Of a stretch of DNA of 13,738 nucleotides, positions 1-13,738 are shown in pieces (position 1 is the stretch's first letter; each line of letters begins with the position of its first letter). Made by a program: the position numbers and the translations under genes. The notes under the pieces are model-generated. The model did not search any database. It saw nothing but the letters and a program-made list of their open reading frames with translations, and was not told where the DNA came from. The DNA is from an uncultured bacterium (lineage in GTDB: Bacteria > Muiribacteriota > UBA6191 > CAZXTJ01): NCBI GenBank assembly GCA_964643655.1, contig CAZXTJ010000169.1, forward strand, positions 1-13,738, in the 5' to 3' direction.

Positions 1-1955
1 GCGCCATACTGCCCCAACCACATAAAAGGAACCAAATCACTGTCTATGCGATGAAAGATGAGGTAATACTTCAGCACTACCCAAGGCTGTAAAACTTCAT
101 ACCATTTGGTCAGTTCGTTGACTTTTAAAAGACGAGCAGAAAAGAGCAAGGGTGCCAATGCAGCAGCTTGTTTACCCTGTTGAACGAGATTGCGCTCCTT
201 CAATCGTCTCTCCATTTCCTTCCGTGCTTTTTGTCGGCTCTTGTGCAAACGAGCATTTTCTTGTGACCTAACATTGCGAAACTTCTCCATTCCATCGCGC
301 AAGGAATCTATTTCACCGGCAACAGAAGAGAGAGATTGGAGCAAAGAAACGTTTATTCCTTTAGTGAGACGTCTATTGTCCAAGACAGATAGTTTGGGTA
401 ACAAAGTCTCCAAACGCTCTTTTAATATCTCTACTATTTCAACACGACGTTCACCACCACCGCTCAATCTCGTTACGATGGTAATGGCATGGCAATCGAT
501 GGGCAGCTCGGCCAATTGGACGGACATTGAGTCGTCTTTGTTTCTTTTGGCTGCCAATCTTCTTTCGCCCACAGTCTTGGAGCTAATGAATACCTCTGCC
601 ATTCCTTCTGCATTGGCTTTCCAATGAAGACTCACATCCTTGCCTTCTCGATGTGTACGCGCCGCCAGAAGCTCCAATTTAAAGGCGGCTGTTTTGATGC
701 GCCTAGGCAAGGTCGTTGAGCCATCAGGGAAAACTATCTTCATAGCATAAGGTTGATTGTCAGCCAAACCATCTATGATGACCTCATGCTTTTTTGTTGG
801 CTCTTTTCCATTTTTCCCAGCATATGTGAGTGGTCTGACACCACCTTCCAACTGAACCCACGTTCGATAAGCTTGGTGGCTCTGCCAGCTTATGACCATT
901 CCACCGGGCCTAGAGTTAGTGGCCAACATGAAGACGTCATAGTCCTTTTCCTCTTCGCCTGTTTGGTTGGCGATGAAAACACCCAAAAGTACACCGAGCA
1001 AAATGATGATGGCCAAGAGACCGTAGGTCGACTGTGGACCCTCTTCAGGTGGTGGGAGGCTCTTGTTCACAGCTTCAGCGCTCGTTGAGGAATCCAATTC
1101 AGGAGGAATGGTCGAACGGGTGAAAGGAGTCTTTTTAGCTTCGAGCAATGAACAAAGGGCTTTGCCATCAGCGGGGCGCTTTGTCTGCTCTATTGAGCAG
1201 CACTGCTGCAATATTTCTGCAAATTCGCCAAATATTTCTTTCTTACAAACAATAGGGTTGCAGACACCTGAAGCCAAGGAGCGGATGAGCTGTTTCCCAC
1301 TCTGGCCCTCTCGTTCGAAAGGATGCAAACCCGTGGCTGCGTAATAGACGACCAAACCTGCTTGAAAGACATCTCCTGCAGCCGTGAAGTCTTCTCCTCG
1401 CAAAACCTCTGGTGGAGTAAAACGAAGAGTGCCCAAGACTGCACCTTCAGCAGTGAGCGGAGTCCAGTCGACTGGTCGAACGAGACCAAAGTCGACAAGT
1501 CGTATATTGCCATCTGGTTCCAAAAACACATTGTCAGGCGTTATGTCTCGATGGAGTATTCGCCCATCGTGAAGATAACGCAATGCATCAGCCAATCTGC
1601 AGAGCAGAGTTTTTACTGCTTTGGGTTTTAAGGGACCAGATTGAGGTATGACTTTGGACAATGGGGAACCACGAAGAAATTCCATAACGAAATATGGCGG
1701 CGATACATCCAAATCAGCCTGATAAATGTTGACCAACTGAGGATGACGAAGACCTGCCAAGACTGAGACTTCTCTATCCAATCGTGCTCGGGCTTCGGGA
1801 TTTTTTGCATAATGGTCGTGGAGAACCTTGATGGCCACATCTCTTTTGAGCTCATTGTCTTTCGCTCGATAAACGGTACCCATGCCCCCTGAACCAAGGC
1901 ATTGGTTAATGACATACCGGCTGCCATCGCCTACCTGAGGGAAATTCTCAGTCAC
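1..1955 (-). CDS. Hanks-type Ser/Thr protein kinase, single-pass membrane protein with a large extracytoplasmic domain. The GTG start is inside the window; the C-terminus runs off the window start, so the CDS is partial.
   Basis: Translating the minus strand by hand gives one uninterrupted frame from 1955 down to base 1 (about 651 codons, no stop). The ORF track omits it because it never reaches a stop in-window. N-terminus reads V/MTENFPQVGDGSRYVINQCLGSGGMGTVYRAKD. Kinase motifs seen: Gly-rich loop GSGGMG, VAIKVL, catalytic loop LHRDITPDN, VDFGLV, TPPEV. A transmembrane helix (LLAIIILLGVLLGVFIA) is encoded around + coordinates 960-1015. Beyond it lie a beta-rich region and a charged coiled-coil-like region. 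A GTG at 1955..1953 directly follows an in-frame TGA. All + strand ORFs listed in 190..1631 are antisense artefacts of this gene. Confidence 0.88.
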   Translation of the reverse strand, partial: MTENFPQVGDGSRYVINQCLGSGGMGTVYRAKDNELKRDVAIKVLHDHYAKNPEARARLDREVSVLAGLRHPQLVNIYQADLDVSPPYFVMEFLRGSPLSKVIPQSGPLKPKAVKTLLCRLADALRYLHDGRILHRDITPDNVFLEPDGNIRLVDFGLVRPVDWTPLTAEGAVLGTLRFTPPEVLRGEDFTAAGDVFQAGLVVYYAATGLHPFEREGQSGKQLIRSLASGVCNPIVCKKEIFGEFAEILQQCCSIEQTKRPADGKALCSLLEAKKTPFTRSTIPPELDSSTSAEAVNKSLPPPEEGPQSTYGLLAIIILLGVLLGVFIANQTGEEEKDYDVFMLATNSRPGGMVISWQSHQAYRTWVQLEGGVRPLTYAGKNGKEPTKKHEVIIDGLADNQPYAMKIVFPDGSTTLPRRIKTAAFKLELLAARTHREGKDVSLHWKANAEGMAEVFISSKTVGERRLAAKRNKDDSMSVQLAELPIDCHAITIVTRLSGGGERRVEIVEILKERLETLLPKLSVLDNRRLTKGINVSLLQSLSSVAGEIDSLRDGMEKFRNVRSQENARLHKSRQKARKEMERRLKERNLVQQGKQAAALAPLLFSARLLKVNELTKWYEVLQPWVVLKYYLIFHRIDSDLVPFMWLGQYG

Positions 1956-3849
1956 CCTTCAACATCCCGAGCTTCTCGAGTTTTTTATAGAGAGTCGTAC
2001 GGGACATACCAGTCTCTCGAGCTACTGCACGAAGTTTGCCCTGAGAGCGACGAAGAGCGCGTTCGAGGAACACTTTGTCAAAAGCTTCGCGTGCTTCTTC
2101 GTATTCAGGTGGCAACTCTTCTACAGCTAAAGCAGGACCAGCTGAATGGCTGACAAAGGAAGAGCTTCCGCCACCTGCAGCACCAATGGGTAAACTGGCT
2201 GCTGAAACGACTTTGCCTCTTTCGATGACAACGGCTCTTTCGATGGCATTGCGTAATTCGCGGATGTTACCAGGCCATGCATAGGTCTTCAGTGCCTTTT
2301 GCGCATCTTTGGAAAACTTTTTCAGTTTGCGACCAAATCGAGTGGCAAAGGTTTGCAGAAAGTGTTCGGCTAGGGGCACCACATCTGCACCTCGTTCGCG
2401 CAGCGGTCTCAATCTCAGTCTGAAGACATTGACGCGATAATAAAAATCTTGTCTGAAGGTGCCATCTTGCACCTGCCGTTCGAGATCGGCATTTGTAGCG
2501 CAAACCAACCTGATGTCCAGAGGGATGTCATCTTGGCCACCGAGGCGCCTAATCGTTCTCTCTTGAAGGACACGAAGCAATGTAACTTGAACGTCCAAAG
2601 GTAACTCACCAATCTCGTCCAAGAACAAAGTGCCACCAGAAGCAAGTTCGAAACGACCCAATCTCTTTTCCAAAGCACCAGTGAAGGCACCTTTTTCCGC
2701 ACCAAAAAGCTCTGCTTCTATGATGTCTCTAGGCAGAGCAGCACAGTTCACGGCAATGAATGGACCACTAGAGCGACTAGAACGCAAGTGCAATTCGCGA
2801 GCAACCATCTCTTTGCCTGTGCCTGTTTCACCTGTGATTAGCACAGTAATGTCTTGTGCAGCTGCAGCGTCAATGTGTTCGATGAGTTCTTTTGAAGCAG
2901 GACCATCACCTGTGACGAATACATTGCTGTCATTTTCCAAACGCCTCATGGCAGCAATTGTTGTCGTAGCTTCTACCAGTTGGCGTCTTGTCTGTTGGGC
3001 CGCAACGAGCTCTGCAGCGAGGCCAGTCACAACCTCGAAGAATGGCTGCTGTTCTTCAGTCCATGGCCTATCGGTACGTTTTTTATCGAGATAGATGACA
3101 CCAACTGCACGTTGATTGGCCAACAAAGGCGCACATAATATGGCGCGCGGCATGGTGGAAACGGCTAGGCTAGGAGCACCTGCACAACGAGAATCTCGCA
3201 GAGAATCTGCAATTGCCAAAACTTCTTTTTCTTCTAGAGCGTTGGCACAGACAGTCTTTGATATTGCCTCGCACTCTTCACCGTCGACCAATCCACGAGC
3301 AGCAACTCGTACCAAAGTATGGCGCTGTCCTTCCAAGAGGACAAAACCTCGCTCTGCGTCTACAAAATCGATGAGTCCATCTAGAAGACGCTCGAGAACC
3401 TCCTGCGGTTTTGAAGAGGAACGCAGCCCGTCAATAAAAGCTGAGAAGGGCTGCCAATCAGTGGACTTTTTCCCGCCACTGTTCAACTGAATATCTATGG
3501 CGCTTTCGGCAGTGATCTTTTTGGCACGAAGAGCATTGGCCGAAGCCAAAGGGCTGTCGCTCATTTGTATTTGCAAGTCGTCGATGACAACGACATCCCC
3601 TAAGTGAAGAGCGGCATCTCTCACTTTTTCGCCATTGAGATAGGTACCCATGGAGCTCTTGAGGTCGCGAATATGATATTTGCCACCTACCTGGTAGATC
3701 TCGGTATGTCGGCGAGAAACACGTGTACCAAAGAGCATGACGTCGCAGTCGTCGCCCTTGCCCAAAACAGTACTTGCTGAAGTGAGCTTAACAGCGTTAA
3801 AAAAACGTTTCGGTGAATCTGTCGTCCCAATGAGGAGCCACCAAACCAC
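1948..3849 (-). CDS. Sigma-54-dependent transcriptional activator (enhancer-binding protein) with N-terminal FHA domain, central GAF domain, AAA+ sigma-54 interaction domain and C-terminal Fis-type HTH
   Basis: 633-aa ORF. FHA hallmarks are present: VSRRHTEI (SxxH) and TYLNGEKV (NG). GAF-like region spans about residues 150-300. AAA+ motifs: Walker A GETGTGKE, GAFTGA motif (EKGAFTGA), Walker B LFLDEIGEL. C-terminal HTH: RAVARETGMSRTTLYKKL. The GTG start at 3849 has AAGGAA 6-11 nt upstream. Its stop overlaps the downstream kinase start (GTGACTGA). Confidence 0.92.
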   Translation of the reverse strand: MVWWLLIGTTDSPKRFFNAVKLTSASTVLGKGDDCDVMLFGTRVSRRHTEIYQVGGKYHIRDLKSSMGTYLNGEKVRDAALHLGDVVVIDDLQIQMSDSPLASANALRAKKITAESAIDIQLNSGGKKSTDWQPFSAFIDGLRSSSKPQEVLERLLDGLIDFVDAERGFVLLEGQRHTLVRVAARGLVDGEECEAISKTVCANALEEKEVLAIADSLRDSRCAGAPSLAVSTMPRAILCAPLLANQRAVGVIYLDKKRTDRPWTEEQQPFFEVVTGLAAELVAAQQTRRQLVEATTTIAAMRRLENDSNVFVTGDGPASKELIEHIDAAAAQDITVLITGETGTGKEMVARELHLRSSRSSGPFIAVNCAALPRDIIEAELFGAEKGAFTGALEKRLGRFELASGGTLFLDEIGELPLDVQVTLLRVLQERTIRRLGGQDDIPLDIRLVCATNADLERQVQDGTFRQDFYYRVNVFRLRLRPLRERGADVVPLAEHFLQTFATRFGRKLKKFSKDAQKALKTYAWPGNIRELRNAIERAVVIERGKVVSAASLPIGAAGGGSSSFVSHSAGPALAVEELPPEYEEAREAFDKVFLERALRRSQGKLRAVARETGMSRTTLYKKLEKLGMLKGD

Positions 3850-4847: not shown

Positions 4848-4943
4848 CGTTGTTTCCTCCTATATAGGAAATATCGGTAAAAGAATGATCATGTTTTGTT
4901 GTCAGGCATAATAAGGAGCCCTCAGAAAAGGTCAACCCCCTCA

Positions 4944-7478
4944 TTATTCACCACTCTCTTCTTGCTCTTTTTCCTCTTCAGTCAAGGCTTTCAGCCCTTC
5001 AGCCAAAGGACCAGTGCCTGCTATCATTTTGCTCAATGCATCCATACCTCCTCGGCCCAAGAGCAAACCAAGGCCTCCTGTGGCTTGAGGAAGATGTTCG
5101 GCCAGTTTTCCTGCCAAAGCTTGATTTCCATGCGTTTTTATCGCTGCCACGAGGTCTGGTTGTATGGCTTCGAAACGTTTCACGAAAGCCTCTGCTTGAG
5201 CACCGAGTTCCTGTAATCGCAGCACCATTTGAGCTTCCTCGAACTGTATCTGTTGGTCTCTCGCGCTCTTTTGTCGGGCTAATTCAGCTTTTGTAATTTC
5301 GTCTCTCGTTGTCTGAGAAGCCAGACGACCGCTGAGCTCAGTCTCTGTTTCCCGTGACTGAGCATTGATTTTGGCCAAATCGATACCCAATTGCAGATTC
5401 ACCTCTTCTTGTTGCAATAAGAGCTCTTTTTCTTTGGTGGCTGCTCTTGCCTGGGCAAGTTCTTGGCGAATGCGTTCCTCTTCACGAACCGTTTCCAATT
5501 CTTTTCGTGCCATAGCCAAACGGAGGGACTGTTCCACTGAATCCTTCTGACTAGAACGAACCATCTCTGCGATGGCTGAGTCGCCAATCTCCAATTTGCC
5601 AAACTCAACGTCATAAACACGCATGCCATTTTCTGGGAACAATCGACCTGGACGTTTACCTTCGACAGTTTCTCCCAAGATTGCATTTCTCAAGATATCG
5701 ATGTAATTCGTGTAAAACTCCTGAACGCCATACTTTTTCACTACATTGGCCACGAGTGATCGTGTGTGATCTGTGAGGAATTTCACGTAATTCTCTACAT
5801 CGAACCATTTGCTCTTGTCCCCTTCGAAGTCAACTCGGAAAGAGAGTGGTATTCGCACTGAGACAAAGTCTCCAGTTTCCGCAGCAATCAAATCAGAGAC
5901 CTTGTTTGCTTTGACACGCAGATAAACATCTTTTCGCAATTGATAGTCAGACTTTGGAGTTCCTGTTGATAGCTCGATGACCTCTGGTAACTCGTCATAT
6001 TGCAACAACACTGTCTGTGGTCCTTCAATAACTCTGCTTTCACCAGTTTTTGAAACAACTTTGATGGCATAGCCCGTATGTACTCGCACAGTAACGGCAC
6101 CATCATATTTTGTTTTCAGCTGTATGGAACGAGGTGGGACGTATTCGTTGGAACGAGTGAACTCGTCAGCCGTCAATTCGGGCTCTTCACCACTTCCAGT
6201 TTCATCGTTATTGAGTAAATTGATGCCTTTTTTGCTTCTTGCTTTCCTGGCAGTAGGATTGAAGATTCCTTCCAATCCCAAAAGGGAGAGATTGTGTGAA
6301 ACTGCCTCTTCATTACCGGGATAAAGTAACTCGACGATGGGGATGGGCAGAGTCCGTCTGACGATGACTTCATATCTGGGATCAGGCAAGTACATTTTGG
6401 GACCCAAGACCAACTTTACGTCACCAGTCTCCTTGGAGAGCACATAACGGGCTTCTCCTTTGGGTATTGCCACAGCCTGCTGTAGCAGCTGGTCACCACC
6501 ATATTTGATGATTGCATGTTCAGGACGTGGATAATATATTTTCTGGTCTTTTCCCGTAATGAAGAGCTCTTCACCCTCAGCATATTTTTTGCCATCTTCC
6601 TCATAGGGTTTGATCACTTTTACATACAAACCACGGTGTGTCTCGAGCTCAATGGCCTTTATCTTCCTCTCACCTTTGTGAGTTTCATGGAAAGACTGAG
6701 TTGGCCGAGGAAAAACGACGGCTGGTCCATTGACATACTCTTTGGTACCATTCTCGTCTATGAGAATACAGGTTTCCAGCTGTTCGAGAGTGACGGCGTC
6801 GCGTACATATTTACCACACTCAGGAACGACTTCCATTCCCGTAGGTGGAATGTAAAAAGAAACCTCTGTGCCTTTCACAACGAGAAGCTGACCTGTAACC
6901 AAATCTGGTGTGGAAGCATCGGGGAAAATTTCACCCTTGTTTTCATCTGTAATCTCTTCAGTAGAATTGGTCTGTTTTTTGAGGACTGCATTCTTCCAAT
7001 TTGATTTGGCCACTTCACCATTAATGACGCGAACGACTAAATATTGGTTAGAGCGGAGAATGTGGCCATCTAGGCAAGTGGCTGATTGACCTGGGTAAAG
7101 AGCAAAAGTTGCGGGACCTGGTATATTGACTCTTCGCCCCATTGCCAGTTCCACAGAGCCCTGTTTTCCTCTTGATGGGTGGCGATGTTCGTCTTCTTCA
7201 ACAGGATTTTGTAAAACGATATATTGCCCCTCTTTTGCTGCAGGCCACATTGTTACTGCTGATTTGAGGAGGCAACGTTGGAATGATTGAGTTTTGCTAT
7301 CAAAACGAACTGGATTGTCTGTCTCACCAATACTCGTCTTTGTTGGTCCTACGTGCACTTCCACAGTACCATCGGCGCCATTTTGCACGAGGGCTTGTTC
7401 TCCTTGAGCCAGAACGAGATCGCCGCCTCGCTCTCTCATTTCGCGAATATCCCTGTCATACTCTCTGTTGCTTCCCAT
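4944..7478 (-). CDS. mvp: Major vault protein (MVP) homolog: vault shell protein with N-terminal vault repeat domains, a shoulder (SPFH-like) domain and a C-terminal cap-helix coiled coil
   Basis: The maximal ORF is 4944..7505 (853 aa), which begins with TTG. An ATG at 7478 preceded by GAGAGGA (about 8 nt) is the more likely start. The product aligns by eye along its full length to eukaryotic MVP. N-terminus: [39 protein letters not shown] against human [30 protein letters not shown]. Repeated vault-repeat-like units of about 55 residues follow. Shoulder: [42 protein letters not shown] against [62 protein letters not shown] against [20 protein letters not shown]. A long Q/E/A/R-rich cap-helix follows. 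C-terminus: [19 protein letters not shown]...[11 protein letters not shown] against [20 protein letters not shown]...FGLLGMGPEG. Acidic C-terminal tail. Confidence 0.85.
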   Translation of the reverse strand: [844 protein letters not shown]

Positions 7479-7526
7479 TTTGTTGTCCTCTCTCGGTGCT
7501 GCCAATATTGTCTTTTCTTGTTCATA

Positions 7527-7542
7527 TGCAATCTTCTCGCCG
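7527..7542 (-). promoter_or_regulatory. Weak sigma-54-like -24/-12 candidate upstream of MVP
   Basis: The minus strand reads cGGCGAgaagaTTGCA: GG/GC spacing is correct and the -12 TTGCA is perfect, but the -24 hexamer matches only 3 of 6 (CGGCGA against TGGCAC). It lies 48 nt upstream of the ATG at 7478. If real, it argues against the TTG start at 7505. Confidence 0.25.
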
Positions 7543-7640
7543 ACAAGTGACTATCTTGTACTGATGGGCCTTTACACGATCTCAAACAATGCATCCGTAA
7601 CAGTTCTTTACGTTTTCCAGCACTTCGTTACGTTTACAAT

Positions 7641-7691
7641 TTGACAATAAGGAGAGGATCTTTGACATCTTGGGTCAAAGTCGCCTAGTTT
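7641..7691 (+). promoter_or_regulatory. Sigma-70-like promoter candidate for the nitroreductase/flavoprotein operon, with a palindromic operator-like element overlapping its -35 and spacer
   Basis: Two TTGACA hexamers (7641..7646 and 7662..7667). The second is followed after 18 nt by TAGTTT (7686..7691). The palindrome CTTTGAC-N7-GTCAAAG (7660..7680) spans that -35 and spacer. An AGGAGGG RBS and the ATG at 7717 lie downstream. Confidence 0.35.
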
Positions 7692-7716
7692 GGAACCTTC
7701 AGGAGGGAACAATCAT

Positions 7717-8217
7717 ATGGACGCGATCCTGACAAGACGCAGCATAAGAAAATTCACAGAGCAAGAAGTTACTGAGGAACAGTTGACTTCCATATTAAAA
7801 GCAGCAATGGCGGCTCCATCAGCTGGTAATGCCCAACCCTGGCAATTCATCGTCATTCGAGACAAGATAACCATGGAGGCAGTGACGGGTTTCCATCCCT
7901 ACGCCAAAATGTTGCCCGAAGCTTCAGTTGCAGTTGTCGTATGCGGAGATCTTTCATTGGAGAAATTCGAAGGTTTCTGGGTACAAGACTGCTCGGCAGC
8001 AATTCAAAACATTCTTTTGCAAGTAACAGCCTTGGGGCTTGGGGCCGTGTGGCTCGGAGTACATCCCATTCAAGAACGTGTCGTCGGTGCCCGAGAACTC
8101 TTTGGTATTCCCACCAATGTCATTCCTCTGGCCATCATTCCTATTGGGTATCCAAATGAAAGTAAAGAATCCGTCGACAGATATCAAGCTGACAGAATTC
8201 ACGATGAACGTTGGTAG
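7717..8217 (+). CDS. Nitroreductase-family flavoprotein (NAD(P)H:FMN oxidoreductase fold)
   Basis: The ORF track starts it at 7690, but AGGAGGG lies 8 nt upstream of the ATG at 7717, giving MDAILTRRSIRKF. Canonical nitroreductase N-terminus (RRSxRxF, then EEQLxxILxAAxxAPSAGNxQPWxF). About 166 aa. Confidence 0.85.
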   Translation: MDAILTRRSIRKFTEQEVTEEQLTSILKAAMAAPSAGNAQPWQFIVIRDKITMEAVTGFHPYAKMLPEASVAVVVCGDLSLEKFEGFWVQDCSAAIQNILLQVTALGLGAVWLGVHPIQERVVGARELFGIPTNVIPLAIIPIGYPNESKESVDRYQADRIHDERW

Positions 8218-8232
8218 TTGGGGAGGAAAGAG

Positions 8233-8811
8233 ATGAAAGTCGTAGCATTCAACGGAAGCCCACGCAAAAACGGCAATACTAACGAATTGTTGCAGGTCCT
8301 TCGCAGCCGTCTCGAAGAAGCCGGCATAAAATACGAGCAAATTGATATCTGCAAATCTCATCCTCGTGGTTGTACAGCCTGTTATGCCTGCGTGAAAAAT
8401 CAGGACAAAAAATGTGTCATCGCCACAGATCCACTCAATGAGTGGGTGGAAAAGATGATAGAAGCAGACGGTATCATTCTCGCCTCACCTACATATTTCT
8501 CTAACGTAACTTCAGAGATGAAGGCCCTCATCGATAGAGCTGGTTTAGTGGGAAAAATCAATGATTGTGCTTTTAAGCGCAAAATTGGTGCAGCCGTCGT
8601 TGCTGTTCGACGAGCTGGTGCATTGCCCACCTTTGACGCCATGAACCACTTCTTCCAAATCAACCAAATGATGGTTGTCGGTTCTAGCTACTGGAACCTT
8701 GGCGTCGGTCGCGAACCAGGTGAAGTCAAAGGCGATGAAGAAGGCTTGCAAACAATGAAGGATTTGGGCGACAACATGGCTTGGTTGATCAAAAAAACCA
8801 AGGGTGAATGA
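8233..8811 (+). CDS. Iron-sulfur flavoprotein (Isf-like) of the NADPH-dependent FMN reductase/flavodoxin-like family, with a compact CX2CX2CX7C cluster motif
   Basis: GGGAGG lies 7 nt upstream of the ATG at 8233 (MKVVAFNGSPRKNGNT...). The track's 8218 start is in-frame but lacks an RBS. Flavodoxin-like_2 signature: GSPRKNGNT...ADGIILASPTYF. Cys cluster: C-KSHPRG-C-TA-C-YA-C-VKNQDKK-C. It starts 15 nt after the nitroreductase stop, so the two are a probable operon. Confidence 0.8.
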   Translation: MKVVAFNGSPRKNGNTNELLQVLRSRLEEAGIKYEQIDICKSHPRGCTACYACVKNQDKKCVIATDPLNEWVEKMIEADGIILASPTYFSNVTSEMKALIDRAGLVGKINDCAFKRKIGAAVVAVRRAGALPTFDAMNHFFQINQMMVVGSSYWNLGVGREPGEVKGDEEGLQTMKDLGDNMAWLIKKTKGE

Positions 8812-8815
8812 TTTG

Positions 8816-10768
8816 TTAGTCGGCCATGTAAGTTTTCAGTAGCGGAGTCAATCGATCATATTCTGATTCTAAGACAGAAAGCGTTTCTGGAGCGCCATCC
8901 AAACATCGGTGTCGCCCCATATCACATAAACGACTGGCCATATCCCCTACTCCGTGGGCACCAATATATCCTGCTGCACCTTTGAGTGAATGAGCCGCTT
9001 CATGCATCTCGTCAACATTGGCCCGCCCCACAGCAATTCTCAACCTCTCTATTCTCTGAGGAGCATCAGAGAGAAATGTGCTAATGAGACGATGAAGCAA
9101 TGAACGATTGCCATTGACATGACGTAGGGCTTCTTCAGAATCAAATGGAACTGAGACTCGTTTTTTACAAGATGTAGTCTCAATCTTAGCCTTTTCTGAG
9201 TTTTCCTCGCCTGGTCCTGCAGCCTCTTCAGTGGCAATGATGAGCTCTTTGGCAATGACAGGTTTGTTGAGAATGGAGTCGGCTCCAGCTGCAATAATTG
9301 ATTCTCTGCGGCGCATATCTGTATTGGCCGTTACGGCAATGATGGGCGTATAACGACTCATGGTAGATTCCAGCTCACGCATTCTCAGAGTCGTTTGTAC
9401 ACCATCGAGAACAGGCATGGAAAGATCCATCAAAATGATATCAAAAACTTCTCTTTTAAAGAGATAGAGAGCTTCTGCTCCATTCTCGACGACAGAGACC
9501 TGATGGCCACGAGCATTCAAAATCTCAAAGGCAAACTCACTATTGACTGGATGATCTTCAGCAATGAGAACTTTGAGCGGACGATGACACTCTTTTTCCA
9601 CTTGGCCTGTGACCAAAACCACATCTTCCATTTTTGGTGGATGATCCAATACTTGCTCAAAGGTTGTAATCAACTCCATACCTATGATTGGACCAATGAG
9701 AAGATGAATGTGGTCCAGTCTCAAAAGAGCATCCATGATTTCCATAGCTTTTTCTGGACAGAGGGAAATTATCAAAGGTAAGCCAGGTGAGATTCGGCGT
9801 ATCTCGTTGACCATATCACGGATATTTTTCGCATGGATACCAACGCCATCAATATAAGCTGCACCATATTGCTGTCCTTCCACTTTGCTACATGCCAATA
9901 AAGTTTTTACCTCTCGCAATGAACCCACAAAAGTTGATGTTGCCCCGCGGAAGACGAGAAGTTCATCAATCCATTGGCGATGGGATGCACAGTGCGAGAC
10001 TATCATGGTTTTATGACCAACGAGAGAGTTGCGTTCAACCACTTCTCCGTAGTTATTTTCAAACTGAGTCAGTCTTATCTCATATCGCAAGTCATGCTCT
10101 CTTGCAGAAAAACCTGTTGGGACCTTTGCAAACAAGGGTGACGAGATTGGCAGAGCAAAATCACTGATCAGACGAGCTCCATTGTCATCACATTGAACAC
10201 TGAACAATATCTCTATTTCTTTGGCGCTCTCTAGGTGCATGATTGTGGATATTGCCTTTTTTAGCTCTCCTGCCAGGTTTGGTGCACTCACAGTCACATT
10301 TGTGGCCGTTGGAGAAGAAAAACTTGGACGCAAAATTTTTCCATGTTCACAGCCATCAGGTGCCAAGGACCAGATGACCTGCCCCACGAGACTATCCAAT
10401 CTTTGCGGCGCACAAGAATAATCCATTGTAGAAAGAAGAGCTTGCGATAGATTTGTCATGGCTTTGGAGAAGATGCGAGACTCCCAAAGAATGTCTCTGT
10501 TGATAGCTCCTTGAGCAAGTTTTGTCATTGTCAGCAGTGCAGACTTCGTTTCAACGTCCAAACCCTTCCTCTTTTTATCATGTCTCTTCTTCTTTGCATG
10601 AGTTACAAAAAACTTACTCCTCTTGAAAAATGCCACTGCCGTGGCTATGGCACAGCAGGTCATAGAAAGGGCAAATGGTGAATTGTAGAGTGCTATGGCG
10701 AAAGCCACGAGGGAAATTGTCATGAGCAACATGCGCTCGAGTTTTGTGCTCTCACGAGAGATTGTCAT
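8816..10768 (-). CDS. Membrane protein with receiver (REC) and C-terminal histidine phosphotransfer (HPt) domains. The N-terminal and central region has no recognisable histidine-kinase H-box or ATP-binding boxes. Putative phosphorelay intermediate.
   Basis: 650-aa ORF. AAAGGAG lies 5 nt upstream of the ATG at 10768. Two N-terminal hydrophobic segments: MLLMTISLVAFAIALY and ALSMTCCAIATAVAFF. Intact REC at about residues 398-510: KVLIAEDH...ILMDLSMP...AVTAN...LNKP. HPt at about residues 545-640 with HSLKGAAGYIGA. Residues 240-390 look like a degenerate pseudo-receiver. The gene ends 4 nt from the convergent flavoprotein gene. Confidence 0.75.
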   Translation of the reverse strand: MTISRESTKLERMLLMTISLVAFAIALYNSPFALSMTCCAIATAVAFFKRSKFFVTHAKKKRHDKKRKGLDVETKSALLTMTKLAQGAINRDILWESRIFSKAMTNLSQALLSTMDYSCAPQRLDSLVGQVIWSLAPDGCEHGKILRPSFSSPTATNVTVSAPNLAGELKKAISTIMHLESAKEIEILFSVQCDDNGARLISDFALPISSPLFAKVPTGFSAREHDLRYEIRLTQFENNYGEVVERNSLVGHKTMIVSHCASHRQWIDELLVFRGATSTFVGSLREVKTLLACSKVEGQQYGAAYIDGVGIHAKNIRDMVNEIRRISPGLPLIISLCPEKAMEIMDALLRLDHIHLLIGPIIGMELITTFEQVLDHPPKMEDVVLVTGQVEKECHRPLKVLIAEDHPVNSEFAFEILNARGHQVSVVENGAEALYLFKREVFDIILMDLSMPVLDGVQTTLRMRELESTMSRYTPIIAVTANTDMRRRESIIAAGADSILNKPVIAKELIIATEEAAGPGEENSEKAKIETTSCKKRVSVPFDSEEALRHVNGNRSLLHRLISTFLSDAPQRIERLRIAVGRANVDEMHEAAHSLKGAAGYIGAHGVGDMASRLCDMGRHRCLDGAPETLSVLESEYDRLTPLLKTYMAD

Positions 10769-10802
10769 GAGGCTCCTTTCATTTTCGAACTTTTAAAGGC
10801 TA

Positions 10803-10818
10803 TGCAATCTCTCTGCCA
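10803..10818 (-). promoter_or_regulatory. Sigma-54 (-24/-12) promoter candidate for the membrane REC-HPt gene (8816..10768), divergent from the one above
   Basis: The minus strand reads TGGCAgagagaTTGCA: GG and GC have correct spacing and the -12 TTGCA is perfect. The predicted TSS is about 24 nt upstream of the ATG at 10768, with a AAAGGAG RBS in between. Confidence 0.55.
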
Positions 10819-10874
10819 CAGGTGAATGTGCCTCTCTAGAACGAAAGCCCTTTCCAAAGGCAATAGATGAGGCT

Positions 10875-10905
10875 TTTCACTATGGCAATGTGAAACAAGT
10901 GTCAC
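10875..10905. promoter_or_regulatory. Inverted-repeat cluster between the two divergent sigma-54 promoters: candidate enhancer (UAS) for an EBP
   Basis: TTTCAC-tatggcaat-GTGAAA (10875..10895) overlaps GTGAaacaagtgTCAC (10890..10905). There are also two GGCAAT copies. A T-rich tract (10906..10925, possible bend or IHF site) follows, toward the + strand promoter. Confidence 0.4.
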
Positions 10906-10929
10906 TTTTTGTCTTCTTTTTCAGCTTCG

Positions 10930-10947
10930 TTGCGCATTTTGCGCATT
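10930..10947 (+). repeat. Perfect tandem direct repeat TTGCGCATT x2, abutting and overlapping the first base of the -24 element
   Basis: TTGCGCATTTTGCGCATT is visible directly. Each copy contains the palindrome TGCGCA. The last T is T1 of TGGCAC. Confidence 0.5.
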
Positions 10948-10962
10948 GGCACGAAGCATGCA
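10947..10962 (+). promoter_or_regulatory. Sigma-54 (-24/-12) promoter candidate for the response-regulator/pseudo-HK operon
   Basis: TGGCACGaagcaTGCA: the -24 element TGGCACG is perfect, and GC is at the exact -12 spacing (aTGCA against TTGCA). It lies about 46 nt upstream of the ATG at 11008, leaving room for a 5' UTR of about 35 nt with a GAGGAGG RBS. Confidence 0.6.
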
Positions 10963-11007
10963 GATGGGCGACTAGGGGAATCTGAGGCAGTCCTTTGAGG
11001 AGGAAGA

Positions 11008-11604
11008 ATGAAAATATTGATAGCCGATGATGATGCCATGTCCCGCCAACTGCTCAGTGGTTTGGTCACTGAGTGGGGTCACGAACCAGTTACGGCCGAA
11101 AATGGTGAAGAAGCTTGGCAAATTCTGACTGAGCAAAAGCTGCAGTTCATCATCGTAGATTGGATGATGCCCCGCCTAACGGGAGTAAATCTCTGTGAAA
11201 GAATACGAGCAAGTGAACTTGATCAATATATCTACATCATTCTTCTCACTTCACGAAAAGATGCAGATGAAATCGTGACCGGTCTCAATGCAGGTGCAGA
11301 TGATTATGTGACAAAACCCTTTGATGCTCGGGAGCTGGAAGTGCGCCTCAATGTTGGTATTCGTGTACTCGATTTGGAGCGCAGATTAGAGGAAAGAGCT
11401 CGCCAAGCAGAGGAACAGCTTCAGCAGATCAACAAGCTGGAAAGCCTCATTCCAATTTGCTGTGAATGTCGACAAGTGCGCGATGACAAGAATTACTGGC
11501 ACAAAGTAGAAACTTATCTAGCAAAACGCACACCAGCAAAATTCACACACACCTTGTGTCCTCATTGCTACAACAAAGCTATGGCCGAGATTGAAGCAGC
11601 TTAA
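11008..11604 (+). CDS. Response regulator: canonical receiver domain, then a coiled-coil linker and a C-terminal Cys/His-rich zinc-ribbon-like domain
   Basis: 198-aa ORF. RBS GAGGAGGAAG lies just upstream. REC residues: ADDD, IIVDWMMP (phospho-Asp), LLTS, VTKPF. C-terminus: IPICCECRQVRDDKNYWHKVETYLAKRTPAKFTHTLCPHCY (C-C-x-C ... C-P-H-C). The stop TAA overlaps the next gene's ATG (TAATG). Confidence 0.85.
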   Translation: MKILIADDDAMSRQLLSGLVTEWGHEPVTAENGEEAWQILTEQKLQFIIVDWMMPRLTGVNLCERIRASELDQYIYIILLTSRKDADEIVTGLNAGADDYVTKPFDARELEVRLNVGIRVLDLERRLEERARQAEEQLQQINKLESLIPICCECRQVRDDKNYWHKVETYLAKRTPAKFTHTLCPHCYNKAMAEIEAA

Positions 11605-13738
11605 TGAAAAAAAGGTCTATTCATAGGTGGTTGGACGAAGTAGCTCGCTCTGGAGACACAAAATCCTGTTTGGCAGTTCTAAAAGAACTAGTCAACTCAC
11701 TACCTGACTACTTCGAACACAGCAAGGAGACTGCTGTCAGACTCATCCATGATGACCAAAATATAGAAACACAAAAATTTTGCAACACAAAATCCAAACT
11801 GCAGTTTCCCATTTGTGATGGAAACAAAGTACGAGGTTCTTTGGAAGTCTGCTATCTTCAAGACTTTCCTCTGGCCGACGAAGGTCCCTTTAGAGAAGAA
11901 GAAATTGAGATAGTAAAAACAGCTGCCCGCATTGCTGGTTTTGCCTTAGAACGTTGTCGAATGTTTGCAGAAAGACATCAACTGAAGGCTTCCGCAAAGG
12001 GTTATGCCCACACGAGTGGTCAAGTCATTGCTGCACTTCGTTATCAAATGAGAGCTCCCCTCAATGGCATCTTGGGTTTTGCAGAAATGCTTCTTGAAGA
12101 TCAGCTCACTCAAGAGCAAAGAGATGCTGTCAATGCCATTCAATCTGGTGCCGACTCCGTCCTCGACATAACAGATTCGATTTTGGATTATGCTCGTCTC
12201 GATGCTGATGAATTGGAACTGGACAAGAAAGAATTCTCTCTTTCTGCCTTAGTGAATGGGCTCACAGCTTCAATCGAAAAACGAACAGGTCGTTTGATTG
12301 ATATCAAAAGTGAGCTGCCACCCAAACTGAGTTCAGTTATCGGTGATAGCAGACGCTTGCGGGAGGCTCTGGAGAGCTTGGTTTCTTATTGCGCTTCATT
12401 GGATGTGGAAAACACAACAAAAGCCAACATCTACGTTGAACAAACTGACGATACTCTTGACCTCAACATGGAGGTCTATGGTCCACATGTAATTCACTCT
12501 TCCCTTTCTGAAGAGCAATTGTTCAATCCCTTCGAAGGAAAAGCGGAGTATGACATTCCAGAGAAGGCTGCCTTGGAATTGGCCATTGCACGTGGTTTGT
12601 CACGACAAATGAATGGCGATCTCATTCTGGACAAAGTGGATGACAAGGTCATTTTTCGCCTTTTCGCAAGATTACCACGACCTTCAGCCGAAGAAAATGC
12701 TGGGGCAAATCATGCACCTGACGCATCATTAAAAATACTCGTTGCAGATGACAGTAAAGTCATTAGGGTCTTGGCCTCGAAGATATTGACGGGTCTGGGC
12801 CATCAAGTTGATTTGGCTGAAGATGGTGCTCAAGCCCTTGCCAAAGGTGCTGAAGACAAACACGATCTCATTTTGATGGATCTGAACATGCCCAACATGT
12901 CAGGTTTTGAAGCTACGAGAGCCCTGCGAGAGAAAAAAATCAAAACACCCATAGTCTCAATCTCATCTTCTGCTCTGGCAGAGGATAGACGTCAAAGCTT
13001 GGAAAGCGGCATGAGTGGTTTTGTCACTAAACCATTCAAACGTAACGATCTTCGTGCCGTCCTTTCCGAACACTGTGGTGTTCAGTCTCAAGCAGATAAA
13101 AAAGAAGAACCACTCAAAGTACTCATCATCGATGATGACAAAGTCATGCGAAAACTAGTGCGTATGGTCGTGAAAAGAACCTATCCCAATGCTGTTGTCA
13201 AAACTGCAGATGATGGATTGGAAGCTTGTGCACTCTTGGGTAGCTTCTTACCTCGATTAGTCATTACCGACATCATCATTCCTGGTGTAGATGGTGTTGC
13301 TGTAGTCCGCTTCATCAATGAACGAGAACGGTACAAAAACACAGCTGTCGTCGCCATGAGTTCCCTTGGAGTCGATGATGATAGAGTGAGAACTCTCAGA
13401 AGACTGGGTGCAAAACAAATACTACCTAAACCCTTTGAGTGGAATGTCTTTTCACAGGCTGTCAGTGCTGCACTGAATGATGATTCTCTTTCAGCAGATA
13501 CCTTGGAAACAGAGAAACCCAAAATTGTCCCCATGCCCATTCCCTTTGACGCAGGCACAACAGAAGTACCCATTTGGGACATCAACAAAGGATTACGCTC
13601 TGCCGGCGGTTGTTCTAGTCTCTTGAGTTCAGTCGTTGGTGTATTTCTCGATGATGTTCGAGTACGTTTTGATGCCCTCGTTGATGGTATGGAGCAAGAG
13701 GACCTTTCCTGTGTACAAATGCAATCACACACCTTAAA
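11604..13738 (+). CDS. Hybrid sensor histidine kinase-like protein with a degenerate (probably catalytically dead) kinase core, two receiver domains and a C-terminal HPt domain. Partial: the 3' end runs off the window.
   Basis: A hand-translated open frame runs from the ATG at 11604 (overlapping the response-regulator stop) to the window end, with no stop. The ORF track omits it. N-terminal 130 aa are GAF/PAS-like. The HisKA-like helix reads AALRYQMRAPLNGILGFAEMLLED. The Tyr codon at 12042..12044 sits where the phospho-His of the SHELRTPL motif belongs. HATPase_c-like region: IGDSRRLREALESLVSYCASL (N-box Asn replaced), G1 box EVYGPH, G2 box AALELA in place of GxGLGL. REC1 at about 12732..13080 (KILVADD...LILMDLNMP...TKPF). 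REC2 at about 13117..13450 (KVLIIDDD...LVITDIIIPGVDG...LPKPF). HPt begins near 13560 and ends at the window edge inside the QSHTLK motif. Confidence 0.8.
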   Translation, partial: MKKRSIHRWLDEVARSGDTKSCLAVLKELVNSLPDYFEHSKETAVRLIHDDQNIETQKFCNTKSKLQFPICDGNKVRGSLEVCYLQDFPLADEGPFREEEIEIVKTAARIAGFALERCRMFAERHQLKASAKGYAHTSGQVIAALRYQMRAPLNGILGFAEMLLEDQLTQEQRDAVNAIQSGADSVLDITDSILDYARLDADELELDKKEFSLSALVNGLTASIEKRTGRLIDIKSELPPKLSSVIGDSRRLREALESLVSYCASLDVENTTKANIYVEQTDDTLDLNMEVYGPHVIHSSLSEEQLFNPFEGKAEYDIPEKAALELAIARGLSRQMNGDLILDKVDDKVIFRLFARLPRPSAEENAGANHAPDASLKILVADDSKVIRVLASKILTGLGHQVDLAEDGAQALAKGAEDKHDLILMDLNMPNMSGFEATRALREKKIKTPIVSISSSALAEDRRQSLESGMSGFVTKPFKRNDLRAVLSEHCGVQSQADKKEEPLKVLIIDDDKVMRKLVRMVVKRTYPNAVVKTADDGLEACALLGSFLPRLVITDIIIPGVDGVAVVRFINERERYKNTAVVAMSSLGVDDDRVRTLRRLGAKQILPKPFEWNVFSQAVSAALNDDSLSADTLETEKPKIVPMPIPFDAGTTEVPIWDINKGLRSAGGCSSLLSSVVGVFLDDVRVRFDALVDGMEQEDLSCVQMQSHTL

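Follow-up and report, generated by a model that had tools for sequence, protein, structure and literature searches.

Vault proteins and related cages described so far

In the eukaryotic vault ribonucleoprotein particle, 78 subunits of major vault protein (MVP) build a two-halved barrel, with which vault RNA, a TROVE protein (TEP1) and a PARP/vWA protein are associated. MVP on its own self-assembles into vaults, and cage proteins of the SPFH/band-7 superfamily form ring or dome oligomers (PMC12280208, PMC12624060). Bacterial homologs of MVP were listed by Daly in 2013, at ~25% identity to the eukaryotic protein (PMC3762200), and were analysed by Sokolskyi in 2019 (10.1101/872010); those described come from Enhygromyxa salina, Plesiocystis pacifica, Corallococcus coralloides, Microscilla marina, Saprospira grandis and Herpetosiphon aurantiacus. 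Reports of homologs from two gut phages (10.1101/2023.11.10.566534) and from Asgard archaea (PMC12962969) followed in 2023 and 2026. In a literature search, we found no study isolating, imaging or experimentally characterising a bacterial vault or MVP. Here we analyse a bacterial-type MVP gene on a 13,738-bp stretch of DNA from an uncultured bacterium of the Muiribacteriota (contig CAZXTJ010000169.1, the whole stretch being called the window) and compare it with eukaryotic, bacterial, phage and Asgard counterparts.

A full-length homolog of MVP on a bacterial chromosome

The gene lies in an uninterrupted open reading frame (ORF) at 4944..7505 on the minus strand, which has 853 codons when counted from a TTG. 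The likely start is the first in-frame ATG, at 7478, just upstream of which stands a purine-rich Shine-Dalgarno-like stretch, GAGAGAGGA. Starting there, the product has 844 amino acids (aa) and is the same in sequence and start as a public database gene call (P0001). A hydropathy scan revealed no transmembrane segment (maximum 19-residue Kyte-Doolittle mean 0.98) and the protein is, given this absence of any hydrophobic segment, soluble. The guanine-cytosine (GC) content is ~46% and uniform across the whole window.

The initial annotation of the window had taken this ORF for a full-length MVP homolog of roughly 845 aa, and this was borne out: the frame is intact and its product matches MVP along almost the whole length. 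Three Pfam models scored above their cut-offs, namely MVP_shoulder (PF11978; 78.6 bits, cut-off 25, E-value 4.8e-22, profile positions 3-118 of 118, residues 525-633), Vault_3 (34.6 bits, cut-off 28.8, residues 462-515) and Vault_2 (25.9 bits, cut-off 23.6, residues 84-131). A phmmer search of the PDB returned only MVP chains, human and rat (E-value 6e-18, residues 306-793 against MVP 299-814), while a profile of 43 bacterial homologs matched rat MVP with an E-value of 7e-29. Comparison by hhalign of this 43-sequence family alignment with one of 15 tetrapod MVPs gave a probability of 99.8% and an E-value of 3e-28 over 694 columns, pairing bacterial residues 26-828 with MVP 10-841. Neither sequence nor family-profile searches of the PDB found an entry closer than eukaryotic MVP.

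Structure prediction gave the same answer. With our AlphaFold2 model as query, Foldseek ranked human, rabbit and rat vault chains at the top (E-values 9e-31 to 4e-23, ~900 alignment columns), followed by crystal structures of the murine MVP R1-R7 repeats (1e-10); SPFH proteins such as HflK/C, prohibitin, flotillin and stomatin were weaker (4.5e-07 to 1e-4). The initial annotation had raised the alternative of a similarity confined to an SPFH/band-7 domain plus a coiled coil. The N-terminal repeats match as well, however, and the MVP assignment stands because the similarity extends to them, beyond the SPFH domain and the coiled coil. SPFH/band-7 cages (HflK/C, prohibitin, flotillin, stomatin, QmcA) share the SPFH fold of the shoulder followed by a long helix, but they are membrane-anchored and lack the ~500-residue repeat wall, and their structural similarity to the window protein covers ~230-360 columns at E-values of 1e-7 or weaker. 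The canonical SPFH/band-7 layout, an N-terminal anchor and then the SPFH domain, is not that of the window protein, in which the SPFH-like domain comes after ~520 residues of beta repeats. The ORF thus encodes a genuine MVP homolog of full length, located on a bacterial chromosome.

Architecture compared with eukaryotic and Asgard MVP

Rat and human MVP (PDB 4V60, 9BW5, 9MXV) and the window protein are colinear, with a beta-repeat wall, an SPFH-like shoulder, a long cap helix and a flexible Gly-rich C-terminus, and they are of similar length (844 aa here, 861-893 in eukaryotes; domain boundaries are given in Table 1). In the AlphaFold2 model the repeats, shoulder and helix are well predicted and the inserts are disordered; within the repeat body such variable or disordered inserts fall at residues 172-188, 229-275 and 404-460. 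By hhalign, residues 26-524 pair with MVP 10-519, leaving ~51 eukaryotic columns, roughly repeat R3, unmatched. Column identity in the repeat and shoulder regions is 0.72-0.78 across phyla, the repeat body being the most conserved part of the family, and values of 72-78% fit a protein whose surfaces are mostly interfaces. Two Pfam models that match all tetrapod MVPs, Vault (PF01505) and Vault_4 (PF17796), did not match the bacterial protein even at E<=10.

The predicted cap helix pairs with the cap-helix region of MVP in the phmmer, family-profile and hhalign alignments alike. At 136 residues in the model, it is shorter than that of rat MVP, which has ~155. The C-terminal region, judging from the model, is probably flexible, and it can be regarded as a partial counterpart of the MVP cap-ring: hhalign reaches residue 828, opposite MVP 841, with moderate confidence, where the model is unstructured. 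A family motif in this region, P-L-A-I-x-G-G, is nearly invariant in the 43-sequence alignment. The initial annotation had paired the Gly-rich C-terminal motif with FGLLGMGPEG of MVP; hhalign instead sets GLKSTLITDGS opposite, again with moderate confidence, and the earlier pairing is not retained.

Asgard homologs differ in repeat number, the representative having five repeats (PMC12962969) compared to ~7-8 modules in the window protein, and in affiliation, since half of the Asgard MVP sequences group with eukaryotic MVP (PMC12962969) whereas the window protein belongs to the bacterial clade. Modelling has suggested a closed cup for the Asgard homologs (PMC12962969).

The keyhole loop

The loop S-T-G-T-P-K-S of the window protein is paired by hhalign, at its top confidence, with human LSAGRPKR, placing K509 opposite human K506. 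Four of its residues, S504, G506, P508 and K509, are invariant in the 43 bacterial homologs (S-x-G-x-P-K), and a G-x-P-K keyhole loop is common to the bacterial protein and human MVP. In the human protein, the keyhole loop contributes to a pocket for nicotinamide adenine dinucleotide (NAD+) or ADP-ribose between adjacent subunits (PMC12280208; 10.64898/2026.05.01.722283), made up of R504, K506, R507, P508, H509, R511, L517, D521, F522, W545, P565 and K573 (PMC12280208). Elsewhere in the pocket the bacterial protein has, in this order, T, S, D, Y, R, N, K, V, E and D. Because the invariant G-x-P-K loop corresponds to the loop of the human NAD+/ADP-ribose site, it is plausible on sequence grounds that a small anionic or nucleotide ligand is held at subunit interfaces.

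A large family thinly spread over bacterial phyla

A word-indexed search with a limit of E<=1e-3 returned at least 5,311 database proteins. Of these, the 120 best matches come without exception from bacteria or metagenomes, have 800-950 aa and are about 46-55% identical over 95-98% of the length, with one at 80%; among the matches listed, this nearest relative is followed by one at ~54%. An exhaustive search of cluster representatives gave 1,139 clusters at 50% identity, 591 of them with E<=1e-30, and a pattern-seeded scan with one genome per species gave 338 encoding genome stretches in more than 10 phyla, which include Myxococcota, Bacteroidota, Eremiobacterota/Vulcanimicrobiota, Chloroflexota, Desulfobacterota, Riflebacteria, Wallbacteria, Sericytochromatia and others. 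The bacterial MVP family is strongly conserved and thinly spread over many bacterial phyla and large phages.

In existing databases, many relatives carry the label 'major vault protein' (JGI) or 'Major vault protein shoulder domain' (UniRef), and the Enhygromyxa salina relative is labelled 'Shoulder domain protein'; none of NCBIfam, PHROGs and PADLOC includes a model of the bacterial family. Bacterial MVPs had been presented in the initial annotation as sporadic and uncharacterised. The latter agrees with our failure to find an experimental study. The family is neither rare nor novel, being large, reported since 2013 and automatically annotated. The window protein is 47-50% identical, over at least 95% of the length, to proteins of Enhygromyxa salina, Nannocystaceae and Microscillaceae with the same Pfam pattern, and it has all ~130 invariant columns of the 43-sequence alignment. 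Nothing sets its sequence apart from the consensus of the bacterial family, and its source lineage is uncultivated. The gene is an ordinary added member of a known, experimentally untouched bacterial and phage family.

To a single 200-kb contig of Enhygromyxa salina SWB007 (NZ_PVNL01000139.1, locus L029) are attributed two distinct MVP-type proteins, P0081 of 827 aa and P0082 of 822 aa, and two MVP copies were listed for Plesiocystis pacifica (Daly 2013, PMC3762200). Given these two cases, some Nannocystaceae carry MVP paralogues, for which hetero-oligomers are conceivable by analogy with HflK/C or prohibitin 1/2.

Phage-encoded relatives

Full-length relatives, 39-48% identical to the window protein, are present on 160 IMG/VR contigs, many of them of 100-500 kb, and MVP copies also occur in the huge-phage genomes LR756501/LR756503 and LR756500 (735 kb and 462 kb). 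The homologs of the gut phages ctOa11/ctRi15 (10.1101/2023.11.10.566534) and of the huge phages LR756500/LR756501 have the same full-length architecture at 39-48% identity. The phage literature that we found names only the two gut phages with MVP, against the 160 contigs seen here. For carriage on plasmids, PLSDB returned no match.

We then considered gene neighbourhoods in 80 viral loci (L083-L162, IMG/VR) and 82 bacterial loci. RNA-repair-type genes lie within 10 kb of MVP in 15 of the 80 viral loci and in none of the 82 bacterial ones. The viral neighbours comprise one or more of an RlaP nucleotidyltransferase, an RNA ligase, an AAA_33 (polynucleotide-kinase-like) kinase, calcineurin-like phosphoesterases and a DUF2828/DUF7788 protein, and such genes are components of phage RNA-repair modules according to a review on jumbo phages (PMC7824862). 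Identity among the MVPs from these loci ranges over 38-80%, so the phages that carry them are related but not identical. We take the association as a functional hint and not as evidence for the window copy, which is chromosomal and has no such neighbours, unlike the phage copies found beside RNA-repair genes on viral contigs.

The DUF2828/DUF7788 protein corresponds to phrog_850, 'RNA-binding protein', and carries a vWA-like D-x-S-x-S motif (DTSGSM) resembling a metal-ion-dependent adhesion site (MIDAS). It recalls the TROVE plus vWA proteins of eukaryotic vaults. A link to Ro/TROVE was considered and not adopted: there was no PDB sequence match, no relevant paper was found, and only the PHROG label supports it. 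In other viral loci, the gene near MVP encodes a YpsA/SLOG protein or an SNF2 helicase.

Proposed assembly and its alternatives

By analogy with eukaryotic MVP, we lean towards the view that the window protein forms a vault-like homo-oligomeric shell, and a cytoplasmic location is the best explanation within this reading, which as a whole we hold with moderate confidence. Many copies would pack side by side, as MVP and SPFH-superfamily proteins do. A ring would arise from the shoulder domains, a helical barrel from the cap helices and a thin wall from the repeats, with a cup or a closed vault-like shell as the outcome. Such a shell would probably be somewhat shorter than the eukaryotic vault because about one repeat is missing. 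It might serve as scaffold or container when phage and host are in conflict, or when RNA or nucleotides are handled under stress, a hint that comes from the phage subset only.

Several results weigh against this proposal. Identity to eukaryotic MVP is 18-24% (Foldseek, hhalign), and the AlphaFold2 model is a monomer of moderate quality (mean predicted local distance difference test (pLDDT) score 67, predicted template-modelling score (pTM) 0.33). Among the structured parts, the cap helix has the lowest conservation, with a column identity of 0.52, and its hydrophobic periodicity is not significant, being reached by 74 of 1000 shuffles; heptad or amphipathic periodicity was for this reason dropped as a proxy for barrel packing. 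Most of the human NAD+-pocket residues (H509, F522, W545, P565, K573) are not conserved. Eukaryotic MVP has nine repeats (R1-R9) and the bacterial protein about one fewer, and no significant repeat self-similarity was detected in the bacterial family (best E-value 0.03) compared to 9e-18 to 8e-6 in tetrapods. With one repeat unmatched and the bacterial repeats not self-similar, geometry and copy number could differ greatly from those of the vault. Within the window, neither an Rfam family (gathering-threshold scan) nor a tRNA-like gene (ARAGORN) that might serve as a vault-RNA analogue was found, and the window proteins have no TROVE (TEP1-type), PARP (PARP4-type) or vWA domains. PADLOC gave no match for the MVP homolog, and no conserved partner gene emerged when ORFs of the 82 bacterial loci were called and clustered. 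As for the phage RNA-repair genes, they accompany MVP in a minority of loci from related large phages, where shared synteny could explain the association. The contrast in repeat self-similarity, seen although each bacterial repeat is 72-78% conserved across phyla, suggests from sequence comparison that later tandem duplication expanded or homogenised the repeat array of eukaryotes.

The protein could instead form a membrane-apposed SPFH-type dome, with its open repeat rim on the inner membrane and not paired into a free closed vault. The shoulder does have the SPFH fold, Foldseek matches include HflK/C, prohibitin, flotillin, erlin and stomatin cages, some family members have a Pfam Band_7 (PF01145) match, and a 2026 report on Dictyostelium vaults describes an unexpected membrane-associated subpopulation in situ (PMC13100048). 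We nevertheless consider a dome unlikely, as the protein lacks a transmembrane or amphipathic anchor (its hydropathy maximum is the 0.98 given above), no NfeD- or FtsH-type partner is encoded nearby in the window or in the 82 bacterial loci, and vault chains are the best structural match by more than 20 orders of magnitude, including the repeat body absent from SPFH scaffolds. A different question is posed by recent transfer from, or contamination by, a eukaryote, for which there is a precedent in the amoebozoan-like cyanobacterial MVPs attributed to eukaryote-to-bacterium transfer (PMC3762200). This is vanishingly improbable here, and we regard it as ruled out by identity levels and gene context: identity is 18-24% to tetrapod MVP, whereas hundreds of bacterial proteins reach 47-55%, the gene is flanked by bacterial genes (sigma-54 activator, two-component proteins, nitroreductase, FMN (flavin mononucleotide) reductase), GC content is uniform at ~46% and the gene order recurs on an independent 75-kb contig.

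Another reading, compatible with a vault-like assembly, is concerned with function: the protein family would provide a scaffold or container in phage-host conflict, for example for RNA repair or for sequestration of nucleotides or NAD-derived molecules, and the chromosomal copy would be a defence or stress gene. The full-length copies on 160 viral contigs and in huge phages speak for it, as do the 15 of 80 viral loci with RNA-repair-type genes within 10 kb; the patchy distribution across phyla at ~47-50% identity suggests horizontal spread. Burroughs and Aravind are said to have proposed, in 2016, SPFH/band-7 and TROVE modules as RNA-repair scaffolds. Human vaults, moreover, bind NAD+/ADP-ribose and house an NADase (PMC12280208; 10.64898/2026.05.01.722283). 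For the window gene this reading is possible but doubtful: RNA-repair genes are near MVP in 0 of the 82 bacterial loci, the MVP homolog has no PADLOC match, its neighbours in the window are signalling and flavoprotein genes, and the phage association is confined to a subset of related large phages. The vault-like shell is our preferred reading of the assembly. A stronger proposition, that bacterial-type MVPs build true vault-like cages in bacteria and huge phages and act there in phage-host conflict, for example by scaffolding or sequestering RNA-repair or NAD-related reactions, appears improbable at present.

Gene neighbourhood and regulation

The initial annotation had also placed the gene in a regulated bacterial neighbourhood. 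This could not be upheld, as the gene order is shared with one relative only (the 80%-identical one, locus L002, on a 75-kb contig), no neighbour is conserved across the 82 bacterial loci and no sigma-54 promoter is found at MVP. In the search for a conserved operon partner across the bacterial loci, only generic response regulators, kinases and ABC transporters recurred, none of them at a fixed position, and none was accepted as a partner. All features are listed in Table 1.

Table 1. Features of the window, domains of its MVP homolog and viral loci with RNA-repair-type genes.
Feature	Position	Strand	Remarks
Ser/Thr kinase	3..1955	minus	domain search
FHA-GAF-AAA+-HTH sigma-54 activator	1948..3849	minus	domain search
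Hypothetical protein, 180 aa	3966..4508	plus	one membrane helix
Hypothetical protein, 110 aa	4515..4847	minus	signal-peptide-like
Bacterial-type MVP gene	4944..7478	minus	844 aa, 94 kDa, acidic; stop codon 4944-4946
C-terminal region of MVP homolog	4947..5171	minus	residues 770-844; Gly-rich motif, acidic tail at end; pLDDT <50
Cap helix	5172..5579	minus	residues 634-769; one continuous predicted helix of 136 residues (AlphaFold2 DSSP), pLDDT ~70-83
Shoulder (SPFH-like) domain	5580..5906	minus	residues 525-633; alpha/beta fold in model; Pfam MVP_shoulder
N-terminal beta-repeat body	5907..7421	minus	residues ~20-524; ~7-8 small beta-sheet modules (AlphaFold2)
Keyhole-loop counterpart S-T-G-T-P-K-S	5949..5969	minus	residues 504-510, at repeat-shoulder junction
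MVP/nitroreductase intergenic region, divergent genes	7479..7689		211 nt; MVP ribosome-binding site, presumed promoter
Nitroreductase + FMN reductase	7690..8811	plus	
Receiver-Hpt protein	8816..10768	minus	
Response regulator	11008..11604	plus	
Hybrid histidine kinase	11604..13736	plus	
Viral loci with RNA-repair-type genes near MVP	~10001-12500		position of the MVP gene within each viral locus; L131, L135, L139, L143-L146, L149, L150, L152, L161 and others

A pattern search of the 211 nucleotides (nt) upstream of MVP found no sigma-54 -24/-12 element, and the nearby FHA-GAF enhancer-binding protein is thereby ruled out as a sigma-54 regulator of MVP. Just past the stop codon of MVP, within 4848-4943, a sigma-70-like promoter (TTGACC-16 nt-TATTAT, 4935..4908, minus strand) is followed by a GGAGGAA ribosome-binding site; both are kept in L002 and serve the gene of the 110-aa protein. 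Since MVP has no sigma-54 promoter and the downstream gene has its own conserved sigma-70-like promoter, MVP is a stand-alone transcription unit. The 110-aa and 180-aa proteins had no Pfam, NCBIfam or PADLOC match and were found only in the closest relative.

The region between MVP and the nitroreductase gene contains a perfect palindrome, TTGACATCTTGGGTCAA, at 7662-7678, 12 nt before the nitroreductase ORF and in a block kept in L002, as well as a 15-nt direct repeat (7601-7615 and 7621-7635, spacing 20 nt). Palindrome and repeat are probably operator sites for one of the two divergent genes.

The window has three one-mismatch matches to the sigma-54 -24/-12 consensus, two of which fall within the 240-nt region 10769-11007 between the divergent receiver-Hpt and response-regulator genes: TGGCAGAGAGATTGC at 10804-10818 on the minus strand and TGGCACGAAGCATGC at 10947-10961 on the plus strand, each directed at its gene. 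Judging by these sites, the sigma-54 activator may drive the receiver-Hpt and response-regulator genes rather than MVP. The activator gene overlaps the start of the Ser/Thr kinase by 8 nt (1948-1955) and the pair is kept in L002; it looks like a phospho-threonine input, from kinase to FHA domain, into the sigma-54 activator. PADLOC matches of the activator (RtcR) and of the kinase (PD-T4-6, mad6) do not extend beyond the generic AAA+/HTH and kinase domains, and were not counted towards a defence island.

Significance

The window copy by itself adds little, because its family has been published on and is annotated automatically, its host has not been cultivated and the locus has no partner genes. 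Better entry points are Enhygromyxa salina DSM 15201, Nannocystis exedens DSM 71, Saprospira grandis, Herpetosiphon aurantiacus or the huge-phage loci. The more useful results are those for the family as a whole, namely how large it really is and how widely it is spread over phyla, how often huge phages carry it, in some cases next to RNA-repair genes, and the invariant keyhole-loop motif shared with human MVP.

Vault function has been an open question since 1986, and would become accessible to simple genetics in bacteria or phages. If bacterial MVPs assemble into cages, they would add a new class to the prokaryotic nanocompartments and supply shells that can be engineered; and if such cages did act in phage-host conflict, the eukaryotic vault would be a domesticated prokaryotic conflict organelle.

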